Virus record (IMG/VR): IMGVR_UViG_3300028887_000078
Reading direction: 5' to 3' (one strand)
Length of the DNA: 64,000 bases
Source of the DNA: a virus
Lineage: Duplodnaviria > Caudoviricetes
Shown here: positions 3,690 through 63,341 of the stretch, piece after piece
Layout: each line of letters begins with the position of its first letter
How positions within the stretch are numbered: position 1 is the first letter of the stretch
Notes under the pieces: model-generated
Seen by the model: only the letters and a program-made list of their open reading frames with translations
The model's database searches: none
What the model was told of the DNA's origin: nothing
Translations under genes and position numbers: made by a program

Positions 3690-3763
3690 TGGACTTTGTA
3701 TATTTTATCTATTTATAAGGTTACATTTCTTTATAAATATATCGTTGATATATCGCAAGGATT

Positions 3764-4630
3764 ATGAGTTACTATGTAGATTGCAATGACACCGAGGCGC
3801 AGGAATGTCTCGCGGAGTTCACAGACCGAATAAACAAGAAGATGACACTGAACTGCCAAATACCCTTTTCGCTCCCGACGGCGGCGATTGCACAGGTTGT
3901 CGGCGAGGCGAAGAAATACTTCTACAACAAATACGACGACTCTATGGAGGAACTTTTCATTTCCTGCCCGTGGGAGGTGTTACAAGACCCGAAGTTCAAA
4001 TTCGGTCTCACCAACAGGGAGGGTATGGACGGCAACAAAATCCTGAAGTCGGAAACACAGAAGGACAGGGGCGTTTTGGTTATGCCCGACAACGTCTTTT
4101 CCGTTTTGCGTGTCTACCAACTCGGACGATTCAGCGGAGAGGCGGGTTGGGGAAGTTCGACAAGACTCGACGGCGGAAATATGGACTTCGGAATCCAAAG
4201 GATGTTCGCGTCGAGTATGTACAACGACCGCCTGCCGCAAGCAGCGGACAACCTCACATATTGGACTTGCAACTGGTACTTTTTCGACCAAGCGCGGCAG
4301 ATGTTGCAGGAAATGCACAGTTTCAAATACAACCGTCTGACAAAGAAGTTCAGGTTCACAGGTGAGTTGCCGAAGTATCCCTGTGTATTCGACGTTCTGT
4401 GCACGATACCTGACTGCGACTTGTTCGACGATGATTTGTTCTTCAGGTATTGCGTGGCAATCTGTATGAAGGATATGAGCAGAATTTTGGGTATGTTCCA
4501 ATACAATCTGCCCGGAAACGTGACCATCAACTATGATATGTACCAACAGTGGGGTTCGGAGGAATTGCAGGAAATAAAGGAGGAAATCGACCAGAACCGC
4601 CACAGCGTCGCCTATTTCTACACAACCTAA
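3764..4630 (+). CDS. Neck/head-tail connector protein, T4 gp13-like
   Basis: C-terminal LPGNVTINYD motif typical of gp13 homologues; late promoter at 3732-3739. Confidence 0.75.
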   Translation: MSYYVDCNDTEAQECLAEFTDRINKKMTLNCQIPFSLPTAAIAQVVGEAKKYFYNKYDDSMEELFISCPWEVLQDPKFKFGLTNREGMDGNKILKSETQKDRGVLVMPDNVFSVLRVYQLGRFSGEAGWGSSTRLDGGNMDFGIQRMFASSMYNDRLPQAADNLTYWTCNWYFFDQARQMLQEMHSFKYNRLTKKFRFTGELPKYPCVFDVLCTIPDCDLFDDDLFFRYCVAICMKDMSRILGMFQYNLPGNVTINYDMYQQWGSEELQEIKEEIDQNRHSVAYFYTT

Positions 4631-4661
4631 AAAAACGTTTCATTTTTTGTTATATTCAAGT

Positions 4662-6422
4662 ATGGACAAAAAAGAAATAATAGACGAGGTTCTAACAAGG
4701 CGTATATGCAATGGGAAGTCGTTCGCCAAAATGTTTCCGAAGGAATATGGCGAGATGATGAAAATCGAATTTCCAAAGGATTTCAAGTTTTCACAGAAAC
4801 TTTATCATTATCTGAATTGCGACGACAACCTTGAACTTGGGTTGTGTCCGGAATGCGGAAGTCGCTGTGGATATATAAACCTGAAACGCGGGTACCATAC
4901 CTATTGCTCTTCAAAATGTGCCACGTCTTCCAATGCGGTGCAGGAAAAGATGAAGGCGACCTGCCTTGAAAAGTACGGCGTTGAAAGTCCGACAAAAAAC
5001 AATGATATTAGGGAACGTATAAAGAACACCAACATTGAAAAATATGGTGTTGACAACCCTATGAAGTCCGATTTGGTGAAACATCGTGTGATACAAAACA
5101 CGCTTGAAAAATATGGAGTGGAACACACAACACAACTTGAATGTGTGAAAGAAAAGATAAAACAGGCAAACCTTGAGAAATACGGGTGTGAATGTGTGTT
5201 CGGGTCGGATGTGATAAAGGACAAGATAAAACAGACAAACCTTGAAAAATACGGCAGTGAATACATAGGCGGTTCGGAGGAAATTCGTAAAAAAATCGAA
5301 GAGCGCAACTTTGAGAAATACGGTGTTAAATGCACACTTGAACTCGATTGCATCAAGGAAAAATCAAAGAAGACCAACCTTGAAAAATACGGTGTTGAGC
5401 ATCCTGCACAATCGGAAGAGATACAAAGCAAGGCGAAACGGACGAACAATATGAAATATGGTGTCGATTTTCCATTGTCGTCAAAAGAAGTCCGTGAAAA
5501 AATAAGGAAAACAACACTTGACCGATATGGTGTAGAATGGGCGTGTATGCGAACGGAGGCGAGGAACTATTCCAACGACTCGAAACCGAACAGGGCGTTT
5601 GCCGAACTTTTGTCCGAACGGGGTGTCCAATTCGACCGCGAGTTCCCGCTTGGCAAGTATTCCTATGATTTCAGAATCGGCGACACCCTTGTCGAAATCA
5701 ATCCGACAATCACGCACAACTCGTTTTTAAGTGTTTTTGGGGATGCTCCGAAGTCAAACGACTACCATTGCCAAAAAAGTGAAACAGCCTCTAAAAACGG
5801 TTATAAATGCGTCCATATATGGGATTGGGACGATGTTGGCAAAGTGGTCGCAATGTTTGTGGAAAAGACAACCCTGCACGCAAGGAAACTGAATGTGTGT
5901 GTTGTGGGCACAAACATTGCGGACGTATTTTTCAACGAGAACCACATACAGGGAACCTGCCGAGGGAAGTCGCTTTGTGTCGGTCTCTATGACAACGGCA
6001 CGCTTGTTATGTGTATGGCGTTCGGCAAACCGAGATACAACAGGAATTATGAATTTGAACTGTTGAGGTTGTGTACGAAACAGGGATATGCGGTTGTCGG
6101 CGGGGCGGAGCGTCTGTTCAAGTTTGCGCTTGACAGACTTGAATGTTCAAGTGTGATAAGTTATTGTGACTGTTCAAAGTTCAGCGGCGATGTCTATGAG
6201 CGACTTGGTTTCAAAAAAGTCCGCACTTCAAAACCGACGAAGCATTGGTTCAGGATGTCGGACAGGTGTCACGTCACCGACAACCTGTTGAGGCAGCGCG
6301 GGTTCGACCAACTGTTCAATGCAAATTACGGAAAGGGGACGTCGAATGAGGAACTTATGCTTGAGAATGGATTTCTTCCAGTGTATGATTGCGGTCAGGA
6401 CATTTGGTCTTATGAACGGTAG
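4662..6422 (+). CDS. Free-standing endonuclease-like protein: EKYG repeats, PD-(D/E)xK-like domain, Hef/Mom-like C-terminus
   Basis: CxxC motifs; about 9 TxLEKYGV repeats; YDF..LVEINP; HIWDW; ELLRLC..VGGAERL..SYCD. Confidence 0.7.
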   Translation: MDKKEIIDEVLTRRICNGKSFAKMFPKEYGEMMKIEFPKDFKFSQKLYHYLNCDDNLELGLCPECGSRCGYINLKRGYHTYCSSKCATSSNAVQEKMKATCLEKYGVESPTKNNDIRERIKNTNIEKYGVDNPMKSDLVKHRVIQNTLEKYGVEHTTQLECVKEKIKQANLEKYGCECVFGSDVIKDKIKQTNLEKYGSEYIGGSEEIRKKIEERNFEKYGVKCTLELDCIKEKSKKTNLEKYGVEHPAQSEEIQSKAKRTNNMKYGVDFPLSSKEVREKIRKTTLDRYGVEWACMRTEARNYSNDSKPNRAFAELLSERGVQFDREFPLGKYSYDFRIGDTLVEINPTITHNSFLSVFGDAPKSNDYHCQKSETASKNGYKCVHIWDWDDVGKVVAMFVEKTTLHARKLNVCVVGTNIADVFFNENHIQGTCRGKSLCVGLYDNGTLVMCMAFGKPRYNRNYEFELLRLCTKQGYAVVGGAERLFKFALDRLECSSVISYCDCSKFSGDVYERLGFKKVRTSKPTKHWFRMSDRCHVTDNLLRQRGFDQLFNANYGKGTSNEELMLENGFLPVYDCGQDIWSYER

Positions 6423-6841: not shown

Positions 6842-7351
6842 TTATTTGCCGAAAACCTTTTCCGCCTCGCGGTTCATCTGCTTGTAGGTGAGGGAAATGG
6901 GACGCTTCGCACCGAACATAGACCCCATACGCAGTCTGCCCTTCCCGTAGACGGGTCTTTTCATTTCGATTTGGTCTTTCGTCATATTGGACATAATCGT
7001 AAGTATCACCCTTGCCGACGCATAGTCCATCGACACCTCCGTGTTGTAATACATCCTTGCGCGGCGGATAAAGTTGCTCACCTCCTCATAGAACGTCTTC
7101 GGTGTGGCGCACCAATGCGGCGACGTGCGTTCATATTCGTTGAGGTTCGAGATGATTTTCTCGTGTGCGGCGAACAGGAAGTGCATAATGGTCTCCCTCG
7201 ACATTTTCCTTTCATAGGAGCGTCTTTCGTTCAATCTGATTACGTTTTCCACTTCCTTGAAGAACTCGTCCTCGTTGGACGAGTCGTTTTCGTACCAGCC
7301 TTTCGAGTAGAGCACGAGGTCAATCCATTCAAAGTCTTTTATCTTTTCCAT
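6842..7351 (-). CDS. Hypothetical protein
   Basis: Tightly packed ORF in minus-strand operon. Confidence 0.85.
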   Translation of the reverse strand: MEKIKDFEWIDLVLYSKGWYENDSSNEDEFFKEVENVIRLNERRSYERKMSRETIMHFLFAAHEKIISNLNEYERTSPHWCATPKTFYEEVSNFIRRARMYYNTEVSMDYASARVILTIMSNMTKDQIEMKRPVYGKGRLRMGSMFGAKRPISLTYKQMNREAEKVFGK

Positions 7352-7373
7352 ATCGTTGTCTCTTTTGTCGTTT

Positions 7374-7733
7374 TTATTGTATTTCTTTCATTGCATTTTC
7401 AACACAACCGTATTTTTCTTTGATTTCGTCACTGAACATATATGTCATTGTTGTGAAATCATCCACAATTTCGTCTAATTCCCAGATTTTGAGCAAGGCT
7501 TTGAAATACGGTATCATAAGTGTCATAAACACTTTGTTGTACAAATAAACGCGTTTGGAGCCTTCGTCATAACCTCCGATGTGCATTGTGAAGGAAATGT
7601 CTTTGTTGAATCCAATCAGAACCGCCATTTCATTTTCGTTTTCTTTCTGACGGGTTCTCAACCTTTCCTCCAATTCGTACATAAATTCTTCTTTACGAGA
7701 CCATCCATTCAACATTCTTTTATCTTTTTCCAT
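7374..7733 (-). CDS. Hypothetical protein
   Basis: Operon packing. Confidence 0.8.
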   Translation of the reverse strand: MEKDKRMLNGWSRKEEFMYELEERLRTRQKENENEMAVLIGFNKDISFTMHIGGYDEGSKRVYLYNKVFMTLMIPYFKALLKIWELDEIVDDFTTMTYMFSDEIKEKYGCVENAMKEIQ

Positions 7734-7739
7734 ATTGTC

Positions 7740-8138
7740 TTATGATATTTTTTCAAGGTCTATGACCGCCTTTTTCATTTCTTCAAGCAGCATAAGCGTT
7801 GTGTACTTGTGCCCGCCAATCATAGTTCCGTAGGCGTCGCCTGCGTGTGCGTAGTCCCAACCAATCCAATGCCCGCTTCCAAGCGGGTTCGGGCACCCAT
7901 TGCCCTGTATCACAGTTGAAAAGGTCAGCCCCCCGTGTACGCCAAGGTTGATGCTTTCGTAATCACAACCGTAGTATTTTTCGGTTTTGTTTATTTTCAG
8001 GTATATGCAGGGGTGTGTCCCGTATGACAGGATTTTGAACTCCCTGCCCCTGTATTTGCCTTGTGAAAGGATTTTGATTGTGTCTCTTTCCTCCTGATAC
8101 TCCATTTCGGAAATCAGGGAGATATTGTCGCTGTCCAT
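7740..8138 (-). CDS. Conserved phage hypothetical protein
   Basis: VHGGLTF and WIGWDYAH motifs common in phage proteins. Confidence 0.85.
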   Translation of the reverse strand: MDSDNISLISEMEYQEERDTIKILSQGKYRGREFKILSYGTHPCIYLKINKTEKYYGCDYESINLGVHGGLTFSTVIQGNGCPNPLGSGHWIGWDYAHAGDAYGTMIGGHKYTTLMLLEEMKKAVIDLEKIS

Positions 8139-8140
8139 CG

Positions 8141-8338
8141 TCAGAATAGTTTTTGTTTTTCTTTCACAGTTATTTTGTCAGCGTCTATTTTTCGGACGCA
8201 GTTCGGTTTTATCTCCACGAACTTGATTTTCTCCGCAATGTGGGAGATGAGTTCCCTGTCGCAGGAATCGCCTGCGATGTATCTGCCGTCTTTTGTTTCG
8301 CACAGGACGGTCACTTTTTTGATGTCGCTAACTTTCAT
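8141..8338 (-). CDS. Hypothetical protein
   Basis: Operon packing. Confidence 0.75.
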   Translation of the reverse strand: MKVSDIKKVTVLCETKDGRYIAGDSCDRELISHIAEKIKFVEIKPNCVRKIDADKITVKEKQKLF

Positions 8339-8834
8339 TGTTCAGGATTTTTCCTACACATTCGTTGAACTTGCACATATAGTCATACAGACCATATCGG
8401 ATGAGATAGTTCCGTATTTCTTCAGTCTCGCTGGTTTCGAGTTTCAGTTGTTCCGCCGCATACATTCTCCCGCAGATTAGGAACGCCTTTCTGTGTATGT
8501 CGCTCAATGACAGGAGGTAGTTGAAGCATTTTGAAACAACGTCCGCGTTGTAGCGGGTGATGTACTTCATATAGTTTTCAATGTGACTGATTGGTATGAG
8601 GTTCCATTTCAGACTGTCCATTGTGCAGCATCTGTCTATGTCTTTTCTGTTGTCCACGCAGTTCTTCACGATTGCGACAACTGCGTCGTCGTCGAGGTCG
8701 AAGTGCATAGCGTGCTCACCGTCGTTCCATAGTTGCCGCTCGAAGTCGGTTCCGAAGTGCATAGAAACCCGTTCGTTTTCCTGATAATACATAATGTCTT
8801 TTTTATTTTCCTGTTCAAGATTGGAGCGTTCCAT
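8328..8834 (-). CDS. Hypothetical protein
   Basis: Operon packing. Confidence 0.8.
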   Translation of the reverse strand: MERSNLEQENKKDIMYYQENERVSMHFGTDFERQLWNDGEHAMHFDLDDDAVVAIVKNCVDNRKDIDRCCTMDSLKWNLIPISHIENYMKYITRYNADVVSKCFNYLLSLSDIHRKAFLICGRMYAAEQLKLETSETEEIRNYLIRYGLYDYMCKFNECVGKILNNES

Positions 8835-8846
8835 ATAAATGCGCGT

Positions 8847-9170
8847 TTAGAGCATTTCGAGTTCCTGCTGCTTTTGTCTGATTTCCTTCGCGAGTTTCTC
8901 CTTGTAGATGGTGCTCCATCTTTGGTGGATTTCGTCGCACAGGGACTTTGTTTCCTCCTCTGTCAGTTCAGGTTCTCCGAATGTCGGATAGTCGTGCCAA
9001 CAGATGAACCCTTTCTTGTTGAAGGCGGCGAAGAATCCGTACCCTTCGATTGTGAACTTGCAGTCGACATATCCTTCTACTGTACTGCGTTCGAGACTCG
9101 TGATTTCAAACTCCCTGTTTTTAAGTTTTTCCGCGATGATTTCGCGAAGTTTTTCGATAAGTTCTTTCAT
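8847..9170 (-). CDS. Hypothetical protein
   Basis: Operon packing. Confidence 0.8.
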   Translation of the reverse strand: MKELIEKLREIIAEKLKNREFEITSLERSTVEGYVDCKFTIEGYGFFAAFNKKGFICWHDYPTFGEPELTEEETKSLCDEIHQRWSTIYKEKLAKEIRQKQQELEML

Positions 9171-9188
9171 AATATCTGTTTTTTTTTT

Positions 9189-9581
9189 TTAATTTTCTTT
9201 TATTTTTGCTTTCGTAACGGCATTCAGCACCATCGCCTTTCCTGTCAGTCCGCCGACGCACGCCTTTTTCTCTTCCCGCTTGCCGCTTGGAATGTACACG
9301 ATGTCGTGCGTCAGGTTGAAGTTGTCAGAATATCCGCGCCCGTAGTTCGTCGTGATGACAATATCGGTAACACCCCCTTTGGTGAACAGGAAGTCTCTGT
9401 ATGTGATGTGTCTCTGCGTCGTGTCGTTTTCATAGACATAGGTTATGTCCGTTTCGGTTTCCCACACCACGGTCTTGGTCTGTTCAAACAACAGAAACAA
9501 CTGCACCGCGAGCGTAATCACGCCTATTATAAGAATCGTTACTCCGATGGAGATTGTGCTGTTGATTTCTTTCGTGCTCAT
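9189..9581 (-). CDS. Membrane-anchored hypothetical protein
   Basis: N-terminal hydrophobic helix; early-type promoter at 9588-9603. Confidence 0.8.
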   Translation of the reverse strand: MSTKEINSTISIGVTILIIGVITLAVQLFLLFEQTKTVVWETETDITYVYENDTTQRHITYRDFLFTKGGVTDIVITTNYGRGYSDNFNLTHDIVYIPSGKREEKKACVGGLTGKAMVLNAVTKAKIKEN

Positions 9582-9611
9582 AGTCCTTTTATTGAATATA
9601 ATGTAAAATCA

Positions 9612-10091
9612 TCAAAGTTGGACATATTTTGAATATCTCCAATAACCCTGTTTCCCGTCCTTGCGTTCATCCTTTCGACAGGGGAGGCACGCTTCCCCGT
9701 TGGAGTTCAGTGCGCATCGGAGACATAGGTCTGAACCTGACAATGTGGGTTTTTCAATGAAGATGTAGTCGTTGACGCGTTCGACGCGCCAGTCGATTTC
9801 GATGTATTTCTCCTTTTTCCTTTTACCTATTTTGGATTTCTTTTTTTCCAAGAGTTTCCGTTCCGCGTCTATGTGGTTTTTTTCAATGATTTCTCCAATG
9901 TTTTCGTCCTTGAGCAACCAAATGTATCCACTGGCGGTTCGGTTCGCCTTCCACCAAATCGCATTTGAGATTGATGTTGCGTTTATGTTTGTTGCCCGTG
10001 CCGCTTCCGTGACGCTTTGGTATTCGGCGATAAATTCACCTGTTGCTGAATACTGTCTTACGACAGTCGAGTTCTTTCGCAGTATTGCCAT
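9612..10091 (-). CDS. NUMOD1-type HTH DNA-binding protein
   Basis: VRQYSATGEFIAEYQSVTEAAR...ISNA...TASGYIW; no nuclease domain seen; start reassigned to ATG 10091. Confidence 0.75.
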   Translation of the reverse strand: MAILRKNSTVVRQYSATGEFIAEYQSVTEAARATNINATSISNAIWWKANRTASGYIWLLKDENIGEIIEKNHIDAERKLLEKKKSKIGKRKKEKYIEIDWRVERVNDYIFIEKPTLSGSDLCLRCALNSNGEACLPCRKDERKDGKQGYWRYSKYVQL

Positions 10092-10125
10092 TTTTCTTTC
10101 TTTTTGTTGAATATAATGGAATTTT

Positions 10126-10641
10126 TCAGAAATTTGGATTGTATGATATGTTCGTGCTGACGTTGATTTCCTCCACGGCGAGAATTTCATAACGGTTGTC
10201 GTCCTTTGACCGCATCACATTCTCCATATAGTCCGCTATTGCTTTCCTGCCGTTACAATCCCGCAACTTTATCTCGACGGATTTGACGTGGATTGTCAGT
10301 GTGGTGTTCCGCGCGTCCCGTGTCAGAACCACTCCCTGTTTAAGGTCGCCTGTCTTTTCGGTTATGCCGTTTGTGTCCATATCGGCAATCTTTCCGAAAA
10401 TGCCGTCCTCCACCAATGCCTTTTCAAATTCGGCAGACCTTGCGTTCCTGTTGAAATATATTGAGATTGTGTCGTCGAATGCGAGGTTTCCGTAGTACTT
10501 GTCGCTCGCACCTATGCAGCATTTCACATTCATAACGAACTCGTACTTCCTGTACGATATTTCACCCTCGAATATGTTGAAACCGTTGCATTTTGGTTTC
10601 ACCATAGAATGTTCCAACAATTCCGTTTCAGTCAGTCTCAT
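10126..10641 (-). CDS. MRITES-tag family hypothetical protein
   Basis: Starts MRLTET at 10641, just after early-type promoter. Confidence 0.85.
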   Translation of the reverse strand: MRLTETELLEHSMVKPKCNGFNIFEGEISYRKYEFVMNVKCCIGASDKYYGNLAFDDTISIYFNRNARSAEFEKALVEDGIFGKIADMDTNGITEKTGDLKQGVVLTRDARNTTLTIHVKSVEIKLRDCNGRKAIADYMENVMRSKDDNRYEILAVEEINVSTNISYNPNF

Positions 10642-10690
10642 AGTTTTTCTTGAATATAATGGAAACTGAAAAAGACCGAAAAACAACCCG

Positions 10691-10698
10691 TATAAATA
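10691..10698 (+). promoter_or_regulatory. T4-type late promoter TATAAATA, representative copy
   Basis: Plus-strand copies at 3732, 10691, 12156, 15937, 29788, 45003, 53885, 56239, 60294; minus-strand copies at 3710, 17635, 18592, 19494, 25759, 38737, 49667, 53907; many precede structural genes. Confidence 0.9.
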
Positions 10699-10769
10699 TA
10701 TTGTCGGTATTGATATATCGGCGATATATTGTAGTTGAATTTAGTATTAACCCTTAAAACTCTAATTGG

Positions 10770-11906
10770 ATGCAAATTCAGAAAGTATGTGTAAGTGATG
10801 GTGACACATTGGAACAAAAAACCATCAATGTCCCCGTTGAGAACGGCGAGAAAATCATTTCAACAGAACCATACATTTTAGACTGTATCAACAAGTACAG
10901 GGCAAGTTGGGGCGGAAGCACGCTTGAGGACATCTCCGACTTTGAAAAGTCAGGAAGCAACCAGCTGCTTGAAAACGTGACCATCGAAAGGACTGACGAC
11001 AAGTTCGTGATAGACCTCAACAAGAAGTATGACTACCAAATGCCCGTTGAGAGCGAACCCGAAGAAGTAGTGTCGAGTTTCGATGTCGGTGTCAAGTACA
11101 AGATTCCCGTCGCCGCAAACACGAAAAATGGCATCAACATTTCAATCAAGGACTCAATCAAACTTGCGGTCAAGAACGAATTGCGTGCCGCCGCAGTGAC
11201 GCACAACACGTCCAATGCCTATTCAGCGCATATAGACGAGTGTATCAACGGAGGTTACTATGTGACCATTCAGGGAGTGAAGTGCTTTATGCCTGGCAGC
11301 ACGGCAAGTCTTTACAAACTGAAGGACTTCGAGAGCATTGTCGGAACCGATGTGATGGTCATACCCACTATGTACAATATGCAGCGGGACATCGTTGTCG
11401 TTTCGCACACCGCTTTCCTTGAGGCAATCAAACCGACCGTGCTTGACAGGGTTATGCAGGAAGAGAGGGACAATGAGTTCACAGGTGTTGTCACGATGCG
11501 CAAGCACGAATATTTGCTCATCACATTCAACGAGTGTCTTGCAGGAAAACTGTCCTATGCCGATATGGACGACGAGACGAAGGAACTTTTCAACAGCAAT
11601 ATGATAGAGGTTGAAAAGACCGAACTCAAGTTCAAAATCGACTATGAGCAGAACGGTCAGTTGCTTCTCACACAGACGTTCAGGACGCGCAAGATATGGG
11701 ACGAGAAGGTTGACGAGGAGTTCAAACCGAAATCGGTTATGGACGGCGTGGTTGTCGGGAACTCGAAGAAGTTCACCCTCGTGCAGTTGAAGTACGGCAT
11801 CATCGGAACGCTCCCGTACAATGAAAGCGCAACGAACGGCGAACATCTGAAAGTCAAGATTGTGAGCGTGGACAAGGAATCAAGAAAAATAAAACTTGCA
11901 CTATGA
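10770..11906 (+). CDS. Ribosomal protein S1-like multi-S1-domain protein
   Basis: GGYYVTIQGVKCFMPGS..IVVSH and VKIVSVDKESRKIKL S1 signatures; late promoter at 10691. Confidence 0.8.
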   Translation: MQIQKVCVSDGDTLEQKTINVPVENGEKIISTEPYILDCINKYRASWGGSTLEDISDFEKSGSNQLLENVTIERTDDKFVIDLNKKYDYQMPVESEPEEVVSSFDVGVKYKIPVAANTKNGINISIKDSIKLAVKNELRAAAVTHNTSNAYSAHIDECINGGYYVTIQGVKCFMPGSTASLYKLKDFESIVGTDVMVIPTMYNMQRDIVVVSHTAFLEAIKPTVLDRVMQEERDNEFTGVVTMRKHEYLLITFNECLAGKLSYADMDDETKELFNSNMIEVEKTELKFKIDYEQNGQLLLTQTFRTRKIWDEKVDEEFKPKSVMDGVVVGNSKKFTLVQLKYGIIGTLPYNESATNGEHLKVKIVSVDKESRKIKLAL

Positions 11907-12115
11907 TAACAGAAAACAAACCGACAATCACGAATGTGGTGTACTCCTCCATAACGAAGGACTTGATTGTAACCTATTCGGATGGCAACATAACCAAGTA
12001 CCTGAATGTTCCGCAGGATGTGTACGAAAGCATCATCAACAGCGGAAAGGTCGTTTCGGACTACCTGAAGGAGAACCTTGACGCGAACTACAGGAAATTA
12101 CAAAGCGTTCTGTGA
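11903..12115 (+). CDS. KTSC-domain protein
   Basis: LIVTYSDG..KYLNVPQDVYESI pattern, 70 aa. Confidence 0.7.
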   Translation: MITENKPTITNVVYSSITKDLIVTYSDGNITKYLNVPQDVYESIINSGKVVSDYLKENLDANYRKLQSVL

Positions 12116-12168
12116 AAGATTCAGCATTTCAAGGTTGAATATGAAATGAAACAATTATAAATAAAATG

Positions 12169-12296
12169 TAGGTGTGGGACGCACCGAATTTAAGCGTGTG
12201 GAGATGCGGGAAATAATTTTGAACGCTATAAAGCATCCAAAACAATCAGCATCGTTGAATCACGAAGATTCCACCTTTAGGGTGGAAACAGTTCAC
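12169..12296 (+). ncRNA. Orphan TnpB omegaRNA / IS200-IS605 right-end-like element
   Basis: GTGGGACGCACCGAATTTAAGCGTGTGGAG...TCGTTGAATCACGAA, subterminal hairpin TTCCACC-TTTAG-GGTGGAA, end ...AGTTCAC; no tnpB in window. Confidence 0.6.
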
Positions 12297-12326
12297 AAAG
12301 TGTTTAACATAAAAAAATAAAATACT

Positions 12327-13433: not shown

Positions 13434-13680
13434 GACAAGGGTTCTGCTGATGGAGAATTGGCACATCCAACCTTCGGAAATCGACGCGATGCAGTATTGG
13501 GAGTACGAAATCTCCCTCGAAGAGTACGAAAAGATTCTGAAGGAAAGAAAGGAGGAGCAGGACAAGGAACAGGAGGGTATGAATATGAACCCGCAGAAGA
13601 TGGGAAGCGATATGATGAAACAGGCGCAGAGCAACTTCAAGATGCCGAGTATGCCGAACATCAGTATGCCGCACATCTAA
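13357..13680 (+). CDS. Baseplate hub assembly chaperone, gp51-like (start uncertain)
   Basis: LMENWHIQPSEIDAMQYWEYEI pattern; overlaps the 3' end of the gp26-like gene. Confidence 0.6.
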   Translation: MDRKYEEDSNRYLFRLFQINLTNFFRTRVLLMENWHIQPSEIDAMQYWEYEISLEEYEKILKERKEEQDKEQEGMNMNPQKMGSDMMKQAQSNFKMPSMPNISMPHI

Positions 13681-13696
13681 TCCACCTGCAAAAAAG

Positions 13697-13723
13697 AAAG
13701 ACCGCCAAACGGCGGTCTTTTTT
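13697..13723. terminator. Bidirectional intrinsic terminator
   Basis: AAAGACCGCC-AAAC-GGCGGTCTTT with A/T tracts between convergent genes. Confidence 0.85.
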
Positions 13724-13726
13724 GTT

Positions 13727-14378: not shown

Positions 14379-14397
14379 TTTTTTTTTGTTTTCTGTA

Positions 14398-15057: not shown

Positions 15058-15060
15058 TTT

Positions 15061-16928: not shown

Positions 16929-16959
16929 GTTGATATATCGCCGATATATCTCCAAACTT

Positions 16960-16986
16960 AAAGACCGCTTCAAGGCGGTCTTTTTT
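16960..16986. terminator. Intrinsic terminator
   Basis: AAAGACCGC-TTCAAG-GCGGTCTTT followed by T run. Confidence 0.8.
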
Positions 16987-25772: not shown

Positions 25773-25791
25773 GATATATCGGCGATATATC
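25773..25791. repeat. Dispersed double palindrome GATATATC-N3-GATATAT(C/T), representative copy
   Basis: Copies at 3736, 10712, 16932, 25773, 31289, 37637, 44981, 50491, 55962, 63219. Confidence 0.95.
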
Positions 25792-27549: not shown

Positions 27550-27568
27550 ATTGCCGATGATTTGTTTT

Positions 27569-31258: not shown

Positions 31259-31320
31259 AGTCTTTTATTTGAATATAATGCTTTTTTCGATATATCGGCG
31301 ATATATCCGCGCAATTTCCG

Positions 31321-37583: not shown

Positions 37584-37682
37584 AATTCCGATTCGTTTTT
37601 ATTGAATATAATGGAAACGCATAAAAAAGAAACACCGATATATCCGCGATATATCGGTGGTTTATATTGGTGTTCACGGATT

Positions 37683-38288: not shown

Positions 38289-38289
38289 A

Positions 38290-38715: not shown

Positions 38716-38754
38716 ATTGTGAAAATTGGTTTGCTATATTTATACGCATACCGT

Positions 38755-39108: not shown

Positions 39109-39126
39109 AACACAATCTGTTTTTGT

Positions 39127-39929: not shown

Positions 39930-39992
39930 ATCAGAGTGTATAAAACGTGACACTTTAATATAACAAAAAACACGCCGCTTTTAACAGCATTG

Positions 39993-41629: not shown

Positions 41630-41637
41630 AGTTCTTG

Positions 41638-42003: not shown

Positions 42004-42018
42004 ATCCTGTTCGGTGTT

Positions 42019-42866: not shown

Positions 42867-42868
42867 CG

Positions 42869-43267: not shown

Positions 43268-43275
43268 TTTCCTGT

Positions 43276-43704: not shown

Positions 43705-43712
43705 ATCTTAAA

Positions 43713-44114: not shown

Positions 44115-44131
44115 TGTTTTGCTGTTTATGT

Positions 44132-44848: not shown

Positions 44849-45036
44849 AGTTTTCTTTTATTGAATATAATGGAAAGAAAACAAACATTGTAACTTGTTG
44901 TTTCTGTTGGTGTTGTAGGAAAAATCTCAAAATTCTAATTATATCAGTAATATGCGGTGTCCGTTATGGATTTCAGGGGTGATATATCGCCGATATATTT
45001 CTTATAAATATACTGATGAATAAATTGGATTGGTCT

Positions 45037-50468: not shown

Positions 50469-50723
50469 TTAAGTGTCTTTTTTGTTTGTTGATATATCGG
50501 TGATATATTTGAGAAATTCGTTGTAGTCAACGTTTCCGTATCGTTCCTTGATGCCGCTTATGAAACTGTTTTCACGTTCCGTCAGTTTTTCAAGTTCGGA
50601 AATGAGTTGGGCGTGCCGTGATTTGAACTCCTCCATTTTTTTCATTATGTCATTGAGTTCGCAGTCTATTTCGGAGTACTTGTGCACTATTTCGCGGAGT
50701 TCCGCAATTTCTTTTTCCGTCAT
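50469..50723 (-). CDS. Small coiled-coil hypothetical protein
   Basis: Heptad pattern. Confidence 0.8.
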   Translation of the reverse strand: MTEKEIAELREIVHKYSEIDCELNDIMKKMEEFKSRHAQLISELEKLTERENSFISGIKERYGNVDYNEFLKYITDISTNKKDT

Positions 50724-54169: not shown

Positions 54170-56173
54170 ATGAATTTACCGCAAGAGGAACAGATTCCTG
54201 TGTACGAGGAAGACAACCGCAAGAGAGGTGGCGGAACCCTAAAGGCAGAATTTTGCAACAGACTTATCGGCGAACGCGCCGTGAATATGGACGAATATGC
54301 GCGCCGTATGTTCGACTCGCTTGGCGTCAAAAACCACGGGGTGTTCATCACAGGAGGCAGAGGTGTCGGCAAGACCGCGCTTGTCAAGCATTTCCAATAT
54401 CTCATTTCAAACTACAGGTGCCCTTCCATTTATTATGGCGGCGAAGTGTTTGAAATGGATATGTACAAACTGTCGTCGCAAATCAAGTCGCTTGCTGAAT
54501 ACGAGGAGCGCATTATGCGTATGTTCGCTTCGATTGGAACCAACACGACAAAGGACAAACCCCTGTTCCTGTTCATCGACAGCGTGAACCTGTTCGTGTC
54601 GAAAAACAACATCAACCTTATGACTTCGCTCTATCTTGAGAACGCGGTGAAGGCGGGCATCCGTGTAATCTGCTGTTGCAACCTCAACGAGCGCAAGCAA
54701 CTCGAAAGCGAATACGACCTTTTCCGCCATTTCACTGAAATCCGCATCAAGGAACCGAGCGCGGAGGAAACGAAACAGATACTTCGTGAGAAAACGGAGG
54801 AAATCTGCAAACGCTACAACCTTTCCGTTTCCGAATCAATCACGGACAGAATCGTCACGTTGTCCGACAAATACATCAAGAGCGACTTCCTTATGCCGAA
54901 GAAGGCAATCAATGTGTTCGAGTATGCCGCGGCAAAGCACAACAACGACCTGTGTATGCCCTGTGACGATGTGATTGGGAAAATAGACAGTACCGTGAAA
55001 CTCCGCGCTGAACTGAACGATATGGCGAAATCGCTCAACAAGAACGGTTCCGATATGAATGATTTAATCCGCAAGTACACGGAACTGACGGACACCGAGT
55101 CGCTCATCAGAAACAACAACCGCACAATCGGGCGTGAGGACAGGGTGCTGACAGAGAACGACGTGTTCTCGGCAATCAGCGACATCGCAGGCGTGCCTGT
55201 CGCAAAAATGACGGAGAGTGACACTTCCAAACTGAAGAATATGGAAGGCGAAATCGAGTCAAAAGTCATCGGTCAGGACAACACGGTTGCAAAAGTCTGC
55301 AAGACCATCAAGAGAAACAGACTCGGTTTGAGAAAGAAAAACCACACCATCGGCAACTTCCTGTTTCTCGGTTCCACGGGTGTCGGCAAGACGTTCCTTG
55401 CCAAGAAAATCTCCGAGTATATGTTCGGTTCGGAGGAGGCGATGACACGGTTGGATATGAGCGAATACACGGACGAGATTTCGGTCAACAAACTGATTGG
55501 TGCGCCTCCGGGTTATGTGGGATACGGTGAAGGCGGCGTCCTTTGCAACGCAATCAAGAACAATCCCTATTCCGTCATTCTTTTTGATGAAATCGAAAAG
55601 GCGCACCCGACCATCTACAACACCATCCTGCAACTGATGGACGAGGGTCGCATCACGGACGCCAACGGAAACCGCATCTCCGCCACCAACAACATTGTCA
55701 TTATGACAAGCAACATCGGTGTCAAGGAAGCGCAGAACGCGGCGAAAGTTGTCGGTTTCTCCGCAAGCAGGGAAGTGAAGGAGCAAAAGGACAGTGAGAA
55801 CCGAAAGGACATCATCGGCAAGTCTATGCGACGACTCTTCTCACCGGAGTTCCTCAACCGCATCGACGGGGTGTGCTACTTCAACGACCTCAACAGCGAC
55901 AACCTCTCCCTCATTTTCGACAACGAAATCAAGGAAGTCGCGGAATCGGTGTCCGAACTCGGATATATCCTTGATATATCGCAGGATGTTAAAGATTGGA
56001 TTGTGAAGAAATCCGAAACCGAGAAACTCGGAGCAAGACCGCTCATCCGTTTTATCCAACAGGACATCGTGGACGAGGTGACTGAACTCATCATCAACGA
56101 GGAGGTCGGCGAGGACAAGACCATTGCCGTGAGATATGACAAGGAGAATGACAAACTCACGTTCGGTGAGTGA
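54170..56173 (+). CDS. Clp/Hsp100 AAA+ ATPase (ClpB/ClpC-like, no N-domain)
   Basis: Walker A GGRGVGKT and GSTGVGKT, DMSEY, GAPPGYVGY, LFDEIEKAHP, FSPEFLNRID, GARPL. Confidence 0.93.
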   Translation: MNLPQEEQIPVYEEDNRKRGGGTLKAEFCNRLIGERAVNMDEYARRMFDSLGVKNHGVFITGGRGVGKTALVKHFQYLISNYRCPSIYYGGEVFEMDMYKLSSQIKSLAEYEERIMRMFASIGTNTTKDKPLFLFIDSVNLFVSKNNINLMTSLYLENAVKAGIRVICCCNLNERKQLESEYDLFRHFTEIRIKEPSAEETKQILREKTEEICKRYNLSVSESITDRIVTLSDKYIKSDFLMPKKAINVFEYAAAKHNNDLCMPCDDVIGKIDSTVKLRAELNDMAKSLNKNGSDMNDLIRKYTELTDTESLIRNNNRTIGREDRVLTENDVFSAISDIAGVPVAKMTESDTSKLKNMEGEIESKVIGQDNTVAKVCKTIKRNRLGLRKKNHTIGNFLFLGSTGVGKTFLAKKISEYMFGSEEAMTRLDMSEYTDEISVNKLIGAPPGYVGYGEGGVLCNAIKNNPYSVILFDEIEKAHPTIYNTILQLMDEGRITDANGNRISATNNIVIMTSNIGVKEAQNAAKVVGFSASREVKEQKDSENRKDIIGKSMRRLFSPEFLNRIDGVCYFNDLNSDNLSLIFDNEIKEVAESVSELGYILDISQDVKDWIVKKSETEKLGARPLIRFIQQDIVDEVTELIINEEVGEDKTIAVRYDKENDKLTFGE

Positions 56174-56262: not shown

Positions 56263-57624
56263 ATGTCATCTATGGAAATAAATGAAGTGATAACTAAAAA
56301 TGATTTGTTCACATTTCTAACAACAAGAAAAAAATATTCTAACTCATACTTTATAGAATCATATTTCAAAAAAATATTCAAGACACATTATGAAAACATT
56401 TTGAATTTTCACAACAAGTATTATGATTTTGATATTCCGTTTAATCAGAAACTATACAATTATCTTTATGATATAACAAAATTACCGTGTTGCTTGAATT
56501 GTGGTAAAAACACAAAATATGTATCATTTTCTTATGGATATGGAACGTATTGTTCAACACAATGTTCTTTGCATAGTGATGTGCGTGCAGAGGTTATTGG
56601 AAACAGTCATAGAAATAAATCAAAAGAAGATGTTGAAATTGCAATTAGAAAAAGGGAAGCGACGTGTTTGGAAAAATACAATGTGACGTATGTCAGTAAA
56701 TGTGAAGCGGTAAAACAAAAAATGAAAGATACGGTAAGTAAAAAAACAGATGAAGATAAAAAACTCACGAAAGAAAAAGTAAGAAATACTTGGAAGAATA
56801 AGTCAAAAGAAGAAAAAGATGAAATTGTAAGAAAACGAAATGAAACCAATTCAAATAAGTCAAAAGAAGAAAAAGATGAGATACATAAAAAATCCGTTCT
56901 TACAAGAATTAAACATTGTGGATGTATTGAGGAATCATACAGACTTGGAATAGAGAAGGGAAAGGTTACAAATAATGAAAAGTATGGTGTTGATAATCCA
57001 TTTCAGTTGCAGAAAGTGATAGATGCCACAAAAGAAAAATGGAACAAATACAGAAACGAGAATTTCACAGATGTTATTGAATACATAAAAGAAACAGATA
57101 CATATATTTGTAAATGTGTTGATGATACCTGTAATTTGTGCGATATAAAAAAATTTTCCATATCTACACATAATTATCTTAATAGAAAACGGTATGGTTA
57201 TTCGCAAGAAGATATGTGTGTCATAAAAAATCCAATCGGTGAATACCGAGGAAAATCAAAAACACAAGATGAGATTTATGATTTTGTAAAAAGTATATAC
57301 AAAGATAGCATTATCTATAATGATAAAAATGCTTTGAAAAATGCAAATGAAAGAAAAATAGAATTGGATATATTTTTTCCTTCAATCAATTTGGCAATAG
57401 AAGTCAATGGCGATTATTGGCACGCAAATCCGAAATTTTATTTGGATAATGATGTGAATAAAACATTAGGGTTAACTGCAAAAGAAATATGGGAACGAGA
57501 CGAACAAAAAAGAATAATGTGCAAACAATGTGGAATCAATTTGTATGTTATATGGGAAGATGAATGGAAACATAGCAGATTGGAGACACAAGAAAGAATA
57601 AAGAAAATGTTGAATGTTATATGA
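56263..57624 (+). CDS. Free-standing endonuclease (EKYG repeats plus Vsr/DUF559-like domain), putative homing endonuclease
   Basis: ELDIF..AIEVNGDYWH..IWE; strongly AT-rich; N-terminus resembles 4662..6422. Confidence 0.8.
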   Translation: MSSMEINEVITKNDLFTFLTTRKKYSNSYFIESYFKKIFKTHYENILNFHNKYYDFDIPFNQKLYNYLYDITKLPCCLNCGKNTKYVSFSYGYGTYCSTQCSLHSDVRAEVIGNSHRNKSKEDVEIAIRKREATCLEKYNVTYVSKCEAVKQKMKDTVSKKTDEDKKLTKEKVRNTWKNKSKEEKDEIVRKRNETNSNKSKEEKDEIHKKSVLTRIKHCGCIEESYRLGIEKGKVTNNEKYGVDNPFQLQKVIDATKEKWNKYRNENFTDVIEYIKETDTYICKCVDDTCNLCDIKKFSISTHNYLNRKRYGYSQEDMCVIKNPIGEYRGKSKTQDEIYDFVKSIYKDSIIYNDKNALKNANERKIELDIFFPSINLAIEVNGDYWHANPKFYLDNDVNKTLGLTAKEIWERDEQKRIMCKQCGINLYVIWEDEWKHSRLETQERIKKMLNVI

Positions 57625-60211: not shown

Positions 60212-60322
60212 TTTCTCCGTATAATGGAAATTTTTGAAAAAATGAAATTCTGCTAATAGCAGGATTTTTTTTTGCTCTTTATTTTTTGCTCTTTATAAAT
60301 ATCTGAAAACGGATTACATAAA

Positions 60323-62284
60323 ATGTCGGCAATTCCAAACGTGAACAACTATCTTTCCACTGACACATTCCCACTGTCGGACGCTGCGTCAAAACTTGCA
60401 GGCGCAATCGCATCAGGCGAAATCGGCGAGAATGCGGCAACGAGCGGTCGTGACAAGTACGACACCCAAGTCGGGAAGTTCCTGAAAGGCGGTCGCAACA
60501 CAAACCTGATGACAGGCAATAACAAGATTGTGAACGGAATGGAAGACCCAAGTTTCCTTGCGTTTTCTTTCGGCATAGATACAATCGACGAAGGCGGACT
60601 GTTTGGGACAGACATTTCAAACTCAAACAAGAGCACAAACACCCTGCTTGCATTGAACAAGGACAGGTCGTATTCCGCGCTTACCTATCTGCACAACGCG
60701 ATAGGAAACGACGGTGATATGTCAAAGTTCACGTTTCCAAATGAATATGTCGAGATGACGAGATTTGTGAACGGGTTTCTGACATTGACAAAAGACCACC
60801 CCTATGTGTTCCAAGCGATTGACGGACTACCTGACGCCTACAAAAACTATATGAACATACACAAGGACTCTATGCTCGGCGGCGGGAAGGAAACCAAGAT
60901 AAAAATCACCTGCATAGAATCTATGGACTTGCGTATGTCCGCATTGTTCGATTCCTATTTCCAATCAGTCTACAACCACAGGTACAGGAGGATGAACATT
61001 CCGAACAACCTGTTGAGGTTCGACTGTTGGGTGCTTTTGCACGACCTTCGGAACGTCGCGCAGGATATGGGCGGACTTGGCGTGATTCGGAACATTACCC
61101 CGACAATCACAAAGGACATAGTGAACCATCTGTCCACAGTCCTGTTCCTGTTCAAGAACTGCACGTTCAATGTGGAGGAAATAGGTTCGTCATTCGACAG
61201 TATAAGCAACAAGGATGTCAATGAAACGAAGTTCGCTTTCTCGTTCACATACGGAGACCTTGAAGTGTCCATAAACTCGCTTGCCGACGCCTTTGAGGAA
61301 AACACGATTGGAAATGCCCCCGACAACCGCTATGAAAGCGGCATAGACATCGTGAAACTGAACGACAAGGCATTGCTGTCACATAAAACGAAGGATACCT
61401 TCGGTGACGACGGGTATGACAGCGGCATAAATCTCGGAGGTTTGATAAAGAAAGTCGGGTCTACCATATTCCACTATGCCACAAGCAAGTCCCCTATGGG
61501 GAATGTGTATGATGAAAGTTGGGCTGGAATGTTTTCCAATATGATGTCAACCATCACCAATGCAAGCACGTCGAGCATATTGAACTCCGTGTTCGAGACA
61601 GGTCGCCGCCACGCATACAACGCCGTGGCGAACAAAATAAACCCGAAGAACCCGCTTGGTGACCCCGTGTACGATGTTCCCGACAATGTGTACGGGCGCG
61701 GTGGTGAAACCGACGTGGAACCCGTGACGGAACTCGGAACAAGTTATCAGGAAGAACCGCTTGCCGAAGAACTTGTCGCGGTGAACGTGTACCCGCCGAT
61801 GCAACCGCAGGGAACACAACCTTCAGGCACTGTATATACATCATCACCGTCGCAGACACACCTTACAGTGTCGTCTGTATATGGGGACGAACCGCAGCAA
61901 AGTCACATTTCCGTAGAGAACATATATGGCGATATGCCTGAAAGCACACCATACTTCGGCGAAACAGCGGACGTTTCCACAAACGCAAATCACGGAAGGA
62001 TAGGAAATGAAACTATTTCGTTTTTTGAACCTGAACCGAATCGGATTGGCAGGGAGAATGTGTATGGTGAAACCGAAACCGAGAGCACTGAAATTGTGTT
62101 CGGAAACGTGTATTCATCGCCGATGGGAAAATCAAGACCTGCGTTCCATATAAATGTCTATGACAGGATTGTGGAGAGCATAACCAATCCGATGACCGTC
62201 GCCGAAATATTCGGAGCGCCGAAACCACCGCGCAAATTGAATAACGAAAACATATACGAAAATGGCACACATCCTACGAATTGA
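60323..62284 (+). CDS. Late structural protein with C-terminal N[VI]Y repeats
   Basis: TATAAATA at 60294; about 10 spaced [ND/S/T][VI]Y motifs in a P/E-rich tail. Confidence 0.75.
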   Translation: MSAIPNVNNYLSTDTFPLSDAASKLAGAIASGEIGENAATSGRDKYDTQVGKFLKGGRNTNLMTGNNKIVNGMEDPSFLAFSFGIDTIDEGGLFGTDISNSNKSTNTLLALNKDRSYSALTYLHNAIGNDGDMSKFTFPNEYVEMTRFVNGFLTLTKDHPYVFQAIDGLPDAYKNYMNIHKDSMLGGGKETKIKITCIESMDLRMSALFDSYFQSVYNHRYRRMNIPNNLLRFDCWVLLHDLRNVAQDMGGLGVIRNITPTITKDIVNHLSTVLFLFKNCTFNVEEIGSSFDSISNKDVNETKFAFSFTYGDLEVSINSLADAFEENTIGNAPDNRYESGIDIVKLNDKALLSHKTKDTFGDDGYDSGINLGGLIKKVGSTIFHYATSKSPMGNVYDESWAGMFSNMMSTITNASTSSILNSVFETGRRHAYNAVANKINPKNPLGDPVYDVPDNVYGRGGETDVEPVTELGTSYQEEPLAEELVAVNVYPPMQPQGTQPSGTVYTSSPSQTHLTVSSVYGDEPQQSHISVENIYGDMPESTPYFGETADVSTNANHGRIGNETISFFEPEPNRIGRENVYGETETESTEIVFGNVYSSPMGKSRPAFHINVYDRIVESITNPMTVAEIFGAPKPPRKLNNENIYENGTHPTN

Positions 62285-63341
62285 CGAAATGAATACGGCG
62301 GGGAAGATACACCATCTTCTCGGAAACGAGCAGTCGCTTGACGAACTCGCCTCCGACCTGATACGCTTCGTCAGATGGCAGATGACGCACTCCACGAAGA
62401 AAAGGAGGTTGTATGACGGAAAGAAATACATCTATTACTATCTGTGGGACTTCAACGAGATAACCGGATGGTTTTCCGAACAGGGAATCGACTTCCACTA
62501 TCCGCTATTCCTTGTCGAAAGCGGGGAGACCGTATCTGTCAAACTGTCGGTTGCGAGAATGGTGAAGGGTAGGAGAAAACAGCACGAGAGCGTCGGACTG
62601 ATAAAGTTGTTCGGCAACGAGAACGCATCACACAGCGTGAGGAAAAACGCAGACAAAATCAATGGCCATACAATATATGTGAATGCGGCGGTTCTGTCGA
62701 AGAAAGAGGGGATGGACATACACGGATACCTGAAAAGCGACAAGTTCGCGGACAGGTTCAGGGGGTCGGTCTGCCACGAGCTTATGCACGCGTTTGACAG
62801 GATAAGGATGCCGAAGCACACAAGGTCGCATATTGACGCTATGAAACGCGCATACAAGAAATACAGGTCGGATTTCGGCATAGGGAAGTCCATCGTCACA
62901 TTGAAGGATTTCGGGGTATGGAAAGGAAAGGCATTCAAAACAGACTCGGCGTTCCTGTCGGAACCTGTGAACGTCCGCGCCTTTTTTTATATGCTCCTCT
63001 ACTATGTCACCGACACGGAGATGAATGCTTATCTACAGACATTCGCCAACCAAATGCTGTCGCTCCGCACGGACGACCCCTATGAAAGTGACATATACAG
63101 GCGATACCACGCGATAAAGGAGATACTTGAAACCGACTTCAGTGGAATCGCGGACAGGGTTTTTGACGAAAGGACGGTATCTGACTTCACGGGACTTTTC
63201 CCAAAACTGAAAGGAAAGGATATATCGACGATATATCATAAATTGAGCGTGATGTTTTTGGAAAAGACAGAGAAATACATACACAAGATGAACACAATCC
63301 TTTATGATATAATGGAGTTATATGAGCAACATAAATTTTGA
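62262..63341 (+). CDS. Putative zinc metallopeptidase-like protein with MAHILRIDEM leader
   Basis: HELMH (HExxH) plus downstream EMNAY. Confidence 0.65.
   Translation: MAHILRIDEMNTAGKIHHLLGNEQSLDELASDLIRFVRWQMTHSTKKRRLYDGKKYIYYYLWDFNEITGWFSEQGIDFHYPLFLVESGETVSVKLSVARMVKGRRKQHESVGLIKLFGNENASHSVRKNADKINGHTIYVNAAVLSKKEGMDIHGYLKSDKFADRFRGSVCHELMHAFDRIRMPKHTRSHIDAMKRAYKKYRSDFGIGKSIVTLKDFGVWKGKAFKTDSAFLSEPVNVRAFFYMLLYYVTDTEMNAYLQTFANQMLSLRTDDPYESDIYRRYHAIKEILETDFSGIADRVFDERTVSDFTGLFPKLKGKDISTIYHKLSVMFLEKTEKYIHKMNTILYDIMELYEQHKF

Follow-up and report, generated by a model that had tools for sequence, protein, structure and literature searches.

An evenly spaced 19-bp double palindrome, probably a protein-binding array, in the genome of a T4-like phage

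A few plasmids and temperate phages are known to carry dispersed operator arrays. The element described here, a 19-bp double palindrome of the form GATATATC-N3-GATATAT(C/T), occurs ten times in a 64,000-nucleotide stretch of the IMG/VR virus record IMGVR_UViG_3300028887_000078 (Duplodnaviria; Caudoviricetes; the whole stretch is called the window below), which comes from a T4-like phage, and it probably belongs to the class of protein-binding arrays; selected spacing in a giant, virulent phage of this kind would differ from what is known. Among the described systems, the stoperators of cluster A mycobacteriophages such as L5 and Bxb1 are present in >20 copies of a short repressor site, at promoters and in short intergenic gaps (PMC9283540). 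The likeness is that of many copies of one short site, spread genome-wide and mainly in short intergenic gaps (here 10 in 64 kb of window and 21 in the 124 kb of a second contig, G001), to which we add that stoperators act on passing transcription rather than on one promoter (PMC9283540). Stoperators, however, are asymmetric 13-mers that are bound by a monomer, are oriented with transcription and belong to temperate phages, where they silence the prophage (PMC9283540), whereas the element is a symmetric double palindrome of a T4-like phage, evenly spaced and present also within genes. The KorB operators (OB) of plasmid RK2 are likewise palindromic and lie at variable distances from promoters (-4 to >280 nt for the element). 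RK2 carries 12 OB sites on 60 kb, a density similar to that found here. KorB loads at OB and acts over kilobases by sliding (PMC11790492). It is a ParB-family CTPase, however, and OB is a single 13-bp palindrome rather than a doublet; the available parts of the phage and its relatives yielded no ParB_N domain.

Other repeated palindromes come close in different ways. T4-superfamily phages have repeated intergenic elements of their own, the promoter-early stem-loops (PeSLs), which lie beside early promoters where relatives differ in genes (PMC2839356, PMC4122927). PeSLs are composites of ~100 bp that join a strong early promoter to a G/C-rich terminator stem, and they cluster in hyperplastic regions, whereas the element is an invariant, AT-rich doublet of 19 bp that is mostly promoterless, evenly spread and found also in conserved genes, and its conservation ends at the 19-mer. 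Repetitive extragenic palindromic (REP) sequences, with the related bacterial interspersed mosaic elements (BIMEs) and REP doublets (REPINs), are short palindromes found downstream of genes and between converging units, where host proteins bind them (PMC3116915), but REP sequences are imperfect, numerous, irregular and decaying and are spread by a RAYT transposase, while the element is all-or-none, even and kept at orthologous positions, coding sequence included. The hairpin promoters of phage N4 resemble the element in their short stem (8 bp in the element), in their 3-nt loop and in being extrudable from supercoiled DNA. N4 has three of these early promoters at one genome end, each with a stem of 5-7 bp and a 3-nt loop, and they are used by its virion RNA polymerase. 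The sites described here, by contrast, have no consistent direction, and their pairing is not kept by compensatory change. The nearest match in architecture is an operator of the GntR/FCD type in Rhizobiales, which has an identical GATATATC-N3-GATATATC arrangement in a divergent promoter region, but it is a single copy per genome beside a regulator gene, and the phage proteins scanned contain no GntR domain. We have not filed the element under stoperators, KorB operators, PeSLs, REP or N4-type hairpin promoters; from stoperators, PeSLs and REP it differs in at least one defining feature each. Open-access text yielded neither the motif nor an account of an invariant double palindrome evenly spaced along a phage genome, and a limited literature search turned up no spacing-dependent, genome-wide cis system in any phage.

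An exact search of the window finds the element at 3736, 10712, 16932, 25773, 31289, 37637, 44981, 50491, 55962 and 63219 and nowhere else, in agreement with the initial annotation of this sequence, and dinucleotide-preserving shuffles of the window predict 0.00 matches where there are ten. All 16 of the 16 GATATATC octamers in the window fall within the ten sites (0.8 expected), and the window holds no lone GATATATC half-site. A crowd of additional, irregularly placed copies is absent as well: a fuzzy search finds none in the window at up to three mismatches, and matches with four mismatches occur at a rate equal to that in a motif-free control genome. Copies of the element thus have 0-2 mismatches or are absent altogether, with no decaying ones, which argues against a selfish or neutral repeat. 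GATATATC is self-complementary, and the 19-mer can be described as a direct repeat of two palindromic boxes set 11 bp apart and equally as a hairpin with an 8-bp stem and a 3-nt loop; the earlier remark that copies occur in either orientation is correct but trivial, because GATATATC is its own reverse complement. The spacer prefers R-N-Y (purine, any base, pyrimidine), which is itself dyad-symmetric; any dyad symmetry of the spacer beyond its R/Y composition is marginal (P 0.046).

The spacing of the sites is even but not periodic, as measured on the 64-kb window and the 124-kb G001. Recomputation gives the same nine gaps in the window as the initial annotation, with a mean of 6,609 bp and a coefficient of variation (CV) of 0.17. 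Among 20,000 random draws of ten from the 45 intergenic regions, at most one was as even (P ≤ 5e-5), and two promoter-like motifs of the same window have spacing CVs of 0.79 and 0.85. In G001 the 21 sites are separated by gaps of 2.5-12.2 kb (CV 0.42), evener than random intergenic placement (P ~ 1e-4), and window and G001 pooled give a mean gap of 6.2 kb with a CV of 0.36. What survives of the regular interval of ~6.6 kb that had been proposed is therefore a spacing far evener than chance, without a strict period (pooled CV 0.36), and outside the window this evenness persists in a looser form.

Many copies of the exact motif are found on only two IMG/VR contigs, G001 and its near-twin G002. 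G001 has 21 sites at up to two mismatches and 19 at up to one, and related contigs contribute 17 further sites. Because G001 and the window share the same promoter motifs but almost no genes, and because a window protein is present letter for letter in the sample that gave G002, we infer that G001 is most probably a further portion of one and the same genome, roughly 330 kb long, of a rumen T4-like phage and not an independent relative. The sequencing runs that contain window DNA are bovine or other animal gut metagenomes, and the window has no close DNA relatives among reference phages. The motif is restricted to one lineage: there is no copy in the sister phages G003-G007, whose topoisomerase genes are 55-68% identical and one of which (G005, 363 kb) is 96% complete, and G005, the sole sister scanned for one, has no equivalent dyad of any other sequence. 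A TTTCGAAA palindrome over-represented in G005 was considered as a counterpart and rejected, since it lies within genes and at random intervals (CV 1.2). A motif-free contig (L294), whose homologue of the protein encoded at 62289-63341 has a different peptide at the site, marks the boundary of the clade. On this distribution the element appears to be a genus-level innovation.

Comparison with relatives indicates that the element is under selection as DNA, also within genes. Related contigs were recovered via the protein encoded at 62289-63341. L289 (79% identity in this protein; topoisomerase II large subunit 99% identical to that of the window) keeps both intragenic copies; L290 (73%; topoisomerase gp52-like subunit 92% identical to that of L289) keeps the copy in the 62289-63341 homologue and has its next site 4.5 kb on; and L292 and L293 (50%; gp52-like subunit 85-86% identical to those of L289 and L290) also keep the copy in this homologue. 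Site 63219 is exact in all of these, down to 50% protein identity, and in L292 and L293 GATATATC-NNN-GATATATC falls on the same codons (GAT ATA TCN NNG ATA TAT C) in surroundings that are about half diverged. All 16 specified bases of the intragenic copies are invariant in homologues at 50-79% protein identity, while the flanks diverge, and given the peptide, codon usage alone would produce the motif with a probability of 0.003-0.006 per lineage. Since the intragenic copies are kept base for base despite protein identity as low as 50%, selection acts on the DNA itself; the synonymous-site conservation on which the initial annotation had staked its reading is present in L289, L290, L292 and L293 for site 63219 and in L289 for site 55962. 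The latter site is identical in L289, and at that place motif-free ClpB-like homologues read GFSLSIS or GYKIKLS, with no insertion, where the window reads GYILDIS. The ClpB-like protein sequence appears to have been bent to carry the DNA signal, and such a signal could then override protein sequence, as in GYILDIS here versus GFSLSIS in a motif-free homologue. Among the intergenic sites, 31289 is conserved together with a 58-amino-acid gene and the flanking genes in L147, L112 and L292.

About 80% of all sites are intergenic (8 of 10 in the window, binomial P 2e-7; 16 of 21 in G001, P 4e-10), and most occupy short gaps at the meeting points of transcription units, be these divergent, convergent or in the same direction. 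In the window and G001 together, seven sites overlap the stop codon of the gene before them, about half lie no more than 27 nt past a stop and about ten end 1-25 nt ahead of a start codon. Promoter-like boxes (TATAAATA, CATTATATTCAA) lie upstream or downstream of the sites or overlap them, the distance on either side being anywhere between -4 and >280 nt; no more than 4 of the 10 window sites are within 120 nt of a CATTATATTCAA box, separate intrinsic terminators precede or follow some sites, and one G001 site lies within a tRNA array. The element has no fixed classical activator or promoter geometry. The earlier view that position is not tied to promoters has nevertheless to be given up, the sites being found at gene boundaries, promoters and terminators, predominantly between genes and at unit junctions.

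The divergent junctions of the window hold three sites. At 3736..3754, AATATATCGTTGATATATC lies between 3255-3650(-) and the gp13-like gene 3764-4630(+), overlapping a TATAAATA box (3732-3739) and ending 9 nt ahead of the ATG; at 10712..10730, GATATATCGGCGATATATT lies between 10126-10605(-) and 10770-11906(+), with a TATAAATA box at 10691 on the side away from the plus-strand gene and a promoter-like CATTATATTCAA box at 10650(-); and at 44981..44999, GATATATCGCCGATATATT lies between an endolysin-like gene, 44132-44848(-), and 45037-45522(+), 3 nt ahead of a TATAAATA box, and one relative's contig departs from the window exactly after 44999. The convergent site, GATATATCGCCGATATATC at 16932..16950, begins 3 nt past the stop of 15966-16928(+) and is followed by a separate GC-rich hairpin with a T-run at about 16960-16986. 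Same-direction junctions hold the sites at 25773, 31289, 37637 and 50491. Two of these, both GATATATCGGCGATATATC, lie between minus-strand genes: 25773..25791 overlaps the TGA stop of 25790-26239(-) and has a TATAAATA box 6 nt downstream in the sense direction, and relatives' contigs resemble the window from 25768 on, while 31289..31307 is 8 nt upstream of a CATTATATTCAA box and the 58-amino-acid gene 31082-31258. The site at 37637..37655, GATATATCCGCGATATATC, lies upstream of a CATTATATTCAA box at 37602 and forms the tip of a hairpin with a 12-bp stem (37633-37659, -16.3 kcal/mol) that is followed on the minus strand by a U-rich run, so that it looks like an intrinsic terminator. A small contig from an RNA library spans this site, which proves nothing.

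Three copies had been placed inside coding sequences by the initial annotation, and two of them remain there. The first, GATATATCCTTGATATATC at 55962..55980, is within the ClpB-like ATPase gene 54170/54200-56173(+), where it encodes G-Y-I-L-D-I-S in the D2-small domain, and the second, GATATATCGACGATATATC at 63219..63237, is within the gene 62262/62289-63341(+), as the codons GAT ATA TCG ACG ATA TAT C (D-I-S-T-I-Y-H). The third, GATATATCGGTGATATATT at 50491..50509, lies in a minus-strand block and is more likely to be an intergenic site 23 nt upstream of the ATG at 50467 than part of a real 84-amino-acid gene, the open reading frame 50469-50723 being doubtful. Two further observations concern the surroundings of the G001 sites: a homologue of translation initiation factor IF-1 directly follows the first site (L057:350-595), and a tRNA array of ~8 kb (L059, about 7000-15200) has two motif sites inside it or at its edge.

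The same boxes occur in bacteria. In Rhizobiales, GATATATC-N3-GATATATC lies between a gene for a GntR/FCD regulator and its divergent neighbour, which in L303 (site at 1634-1652) encodes an FAD-dependent oxidoreductase, and the GntR case was seen in Brucella; many Rhizobiales have exactly one copy (L303, L295, L305, L308, L319, L325, L329, L364), some of them with a third box at a distance of about 45 nt, and the L303 copy looks like a conserved local operator. Two Bacteroidales metagenome-assembled genomes (G008, G009) have 150-167 pattern matches each at up to one mismatch, with the boxes in 11-bp phase and within REP-like palindromes that include the exact 19-mer GATATATCAACGATATATC. These REP/REPIN-like palindromes (GATACATCAAC GATATATCAAC GATATTTCGAC ... 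plus the reverse complement), of which a limited literature search found no description, have ordinary chromosomal surroundings and are frequently where the assembly breaks (L301:1040-1150, L335:7530-7640, and the contig ends of L306 and L355). No spacer-like or prophage match links the phage to either of the Bacteroidales genomes, the DNA matches being a ClpB homologue and the motif only, and the G+C content of both is 0.55-0.58 versus 0.44 in the phage. Judged from these matches, the 19-mer architecture recurs, with an operator-like placement in Rhizobiales. Elsewhere, an unrelated metagenome contig (L148, G+C 0.51) carries iteron-like tandem arrays of an 11-bp GATATATCGTC at 90-130 and 1049-1090, about 960 bp apart.

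A palindrome of this kind could be read as a fold or as a duplex, and the variants point to the duplex. The RNA hairpin of the bare element is weak (-5.3 kcal/mol), 39 of 49 sites have no additional stem pairing, and variant sites break stem pairs without compensation, with one exception, leaving A.C mismatches. The only asymmetry is an end G-to-A variant, which follows transcription 7:2, a ratio that is not significant. Intrinsic terminators have a G+C-rich stable stem and a U-run, both of which the bare element lacks and which occur only at window site 37637 (-16.3 kcal/mol) and at L135:2562 (-19.1 kcal/mol), where the hairpin is extended and followed by a U-run. It is the sequence that appears to be conserved and not the fold, and the R-N-Y spacer is symmetric on duplex DNA but meaningless in a 3-nt loop. 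Sixteen invariant base pairs, two-fold symmetry and a phasing of one helical turn fit a dimeric or tetrameric DNA-binding protein. The initial annotation had proposed such a binder, and the symmetry, the distance between the boxes and the operator-like twin in Rhizobiales speak for it; the binder itself was not found in the part of the genome that was available.

We tentatively favor an array of sites for a symmetric DNA-binding protein that would serve as domain boundaries or loading points, although our confidence in this combined reading falls a little short of even. Protein binding, the nature of the binder and the effect of binding are what we infer. The 19-bp element would be a high-affinity, two-fold symmetric site on double-stranded DNA, and its binder a sequence-specific protein, probably phage-encoded, that acts as a dimer or a dimer of dimers. 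With a site about every 6 kb, the roughly 330-kb genome would have an estimated 50 copies and would be divided into ~6-kb domains, mostly at unit junctions. The bound protein may act in cis on the few kilobases around each site, for example as a boundary or roadblock that halts RNA polymerase and supercoils whatever its orientation, or as a point where a sliding or spreading factor loads or nucleates. Cis action of either kind would explain why spacing rather than promoter distance is conserved, and a binding array would account for the symmetry, the all-or-none conservation, the indifference to promoters and strand, the three kinds of junction, the evenness and the invasion of coding sequence. 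Such a system would suggest that a very large viral chromosome can be organized or switched by physical DNA distance and not by promoter architecture. It would also offer an experimental handle, since the 19-bp oligonucleotide could serve as bait and the roughly 50 expected sites as a built-in map for abundant, uncultured rumen phages. As for the specific case of evenly spaced loading or nucleation points for a sliding or spreading factor, be it the T4-type sliding clamp that turns on TATAAATA late promoters, the phage's topoisomerase II or a KorB-like clamp, we think it possible but unlikely; if true, coverage of ~330 kb would depend on a site every ~6 kb, even at the cost of protein sequence.

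Several points weigh against a binding array. A tight roadblock would come at a cost within two expressed genes; the element can form a hairpin or cruciform and two of its copies are embedded in textbook intrinsic terminators, so that single strands or RNA may play some part; the sister phages with topoisomerase genes 55-62% identical manage without such a motif, and similarity breakpoints between relatives abut several sites, which recombination could explain instead. In addition, no helix-turn-helix or ribbon-helix-helix regulator was seen among the Pfam families listed for 80 small window proteins and 86 G001 proteins (all 18 families for the former, the first 25 of 42 for the latter). The searches for a binder cover about 55% of the genome, and in this part, the window included, neither a phage repressor nor an integrase was seen, the genes present being those of a T4-like, lytic phage. 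ParB_N (PF02195) was not found in G001, G002, G005-G007 or the small proteins of the window. Two genes near sites were considered and set aside. The 58-amino-acid protein of 31082-31258(-), P0001, is confined to the motif-bearing clade, where a site always precedes its gene, but its confident model (predicted local distance difference test score, pLDDT, 85; a beta-alpha-beta-beta unit) matches no known structure significantly and shows no obvious DNA-binding fold. A TnsA-like (PD-(D/E)xK) endonuclease of 163 amino acids is encoded at 17128-17619(-), 177 nt from site 16932, but it is not motif-specific, since a 47% identical homologue occurs in the motif-free G005.

Explanations in which the palindrome works as a structure would have the element extrude as a hairpin or cruciform, either as an N4-type promoter or as a site of nicking, breakage or unwinding for recombination-dependent replication or clamp loading. 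The perfect, AT-rich 8-bp stem and 3-nt loop at every site are as this would predict, as are the several sites 1-25 nt ahead of a start codon; even spacing would suit initiation or loading sites, and breakpoints at sites would fit gene-conversion tracts starting there. T4 has clamp-dependent late transcription and recombination-dependent replication, and both are plausible here given the T4-like genes (gp32, gp13, UvsW-like) and the 57 TATAAATA boxes in 188 kb. However, compensatory changes do not keep the stem, the variants contain A.C mismatches, and the symmetry of the R-N-Y spacer would be irrelevant to a loop; nicking a palindrome on both strands would break the genome, relatives' contigs run straight through the sites, and host-type and T4-late promoter boxes already cover most genes. 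A T7/N4-type RNA polymerase (PF00940) gave no match in G001, G002 or the relatives G005-G007, in a search without positive control, the control genomes likewise giving none. We regard an extruded functional form as rather unlikely. Action in RNA, whether for termination or attenuation, for processing or stability of the transcript, or as the target of a translational repressor, seems improbable. Its appeal lies in the sites' closeness to stops (about half within 27 nt, seven overlapping) and starts (about ten at 1-25 nt), in the two copies extended into strong hairpins with U-runs (-16.3 and -19.1 kcal/mol) and in the fact that a palindrome yields the same hairpin from either transcribed strand. 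Yet the bare hairpin reaches only -5.3 kcal/mol, 8 of the 10 window sites have no U-run, and variants at same-direction sites put an A.C mismatch rather than a G.U pair into the sense RNA, 7 versus 2; sites at divergent junctions lie upstream of both promoters, and the even spacing would go unexplained.

Two further alternatives are a host factor and a recombination linker. The phage might borrow a host factor, the element being a minimal REP mimic that recruits, for example, gyrase, another topoisomerase or a nucleoid protein to unit junctions. According to the twin-domain model, supercoils accumulate at convergent and divergent junctions, where sites are found, and in E. coli REP/BIME elements bind gyrase at operon ends and also bind integration host factor (IHF). 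The 11-bp-phased boxes in the REP-like palindromes of two Bacteroidales genomes and the T4-type topoisomerase II encoded in the window add to this idea. Nothing ties the phage to either of these genomes, however, and their G+C content (0.55-0.58) is not that of the phage (0.44); sister phages with the same topoisomerase genes have no motif, and topoisomerases are not known to need 16 invariant bases. We give this explanation little credence. The element might, alternatively, be mainly a recombination linker between gene modules, like the PeSLs, which are documented exchange points in T4-type genomes (PMC2839356, PMC4122927). Window-to-relative similarity starts or stops 0-5 nt from sites 25773 and 44981, nucleotide identity to L289 rises from about 75% to about 96% at site 63219, and between L151 and G001 the gene order breaks beside site L151:1531. 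Still, for homologous exchange a stretch of 19 bp is very short (in PeSLs about 100 bp are conserved; PMC2839356), site 55962 has no similarity breakpoint, and breakpoints are expected at any intergenic junction; a linker would explain neither the even spacing nor the exact copies within conserved genes, and we consider it doubtful as the main role.

The genes of the window include a T4 gp13-like neck protein, a baseplate hub, a collagen-like tail fibre, a T4-type topoisomerase II large subunit, the ClpB-like ATPase, a thymidine kinase and several homing endonucleases, and just upstream of the window, in the 163-kb source contig, are gp32, a UvsW-like helicase and an RNA ligase. Two kinds of promoter-like box are distributed over the phage. 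The first, ttttYATTATATTCAAtAAAAg, has 14 copies in the window (at 4, 2151, 2971, 9592, 10107, 10650, 14319, 19510, 29593, 31269, 33964, 37602, 44861 and 54122) and 15 in G001, located 10-70 nt before start codons; it is reminiscent of a variant Bacteroidota -7 box (TAnnTTTG) and probably serves as an early promoter. In the sister phage G005 its place is taken by AAATAGTATCTTTGTAAAAA (~40 copies) and TTTTTGTTATATTTAA (~30 copies). In relatives' contigs, similarity often breaks at the ttttYATTATATTCAAtAAAAg boxes, as with PeSLs. The second, TATAAATA, is the T4 late-promoter box, with 19 copies within 3710-60294 of the window (for example at 10691, 25759, 45003 and 53885/53907) and 38 in G001, almost exclusively intergenic and 15-70 nt before start codons, which suggests gp55-type late transcription in a rumen phage.

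Other features of the window stand apart from the sites. The minus-strand block 30277-44848 contains about 30 small genes of 100-200 amino acids, many of which begin with ATGAGAATAAGCGA or ATGAGACTGAC (MRISD/MRLT...). Between the ClpB-like and topoisomerase genes, 56263-57624 is an AT-rich gene (local G+C 0.37) resembling homing endonucleases, in whose place L289 has an unrelated gene of 242 amino acids, and a second large homing endonuclease (DUF7487/HNH), encoded at 4647-6422, has a 50% identical copy in G001. Finally, a Ro/TROVE-like RNA-binding protein (DUF2828/DUF7788; PHROG 850) is encoded at 27982-29508(-) and adjoins a gene resembling IMP dehydrogenase/GMP reductase at 26383-27591(-).

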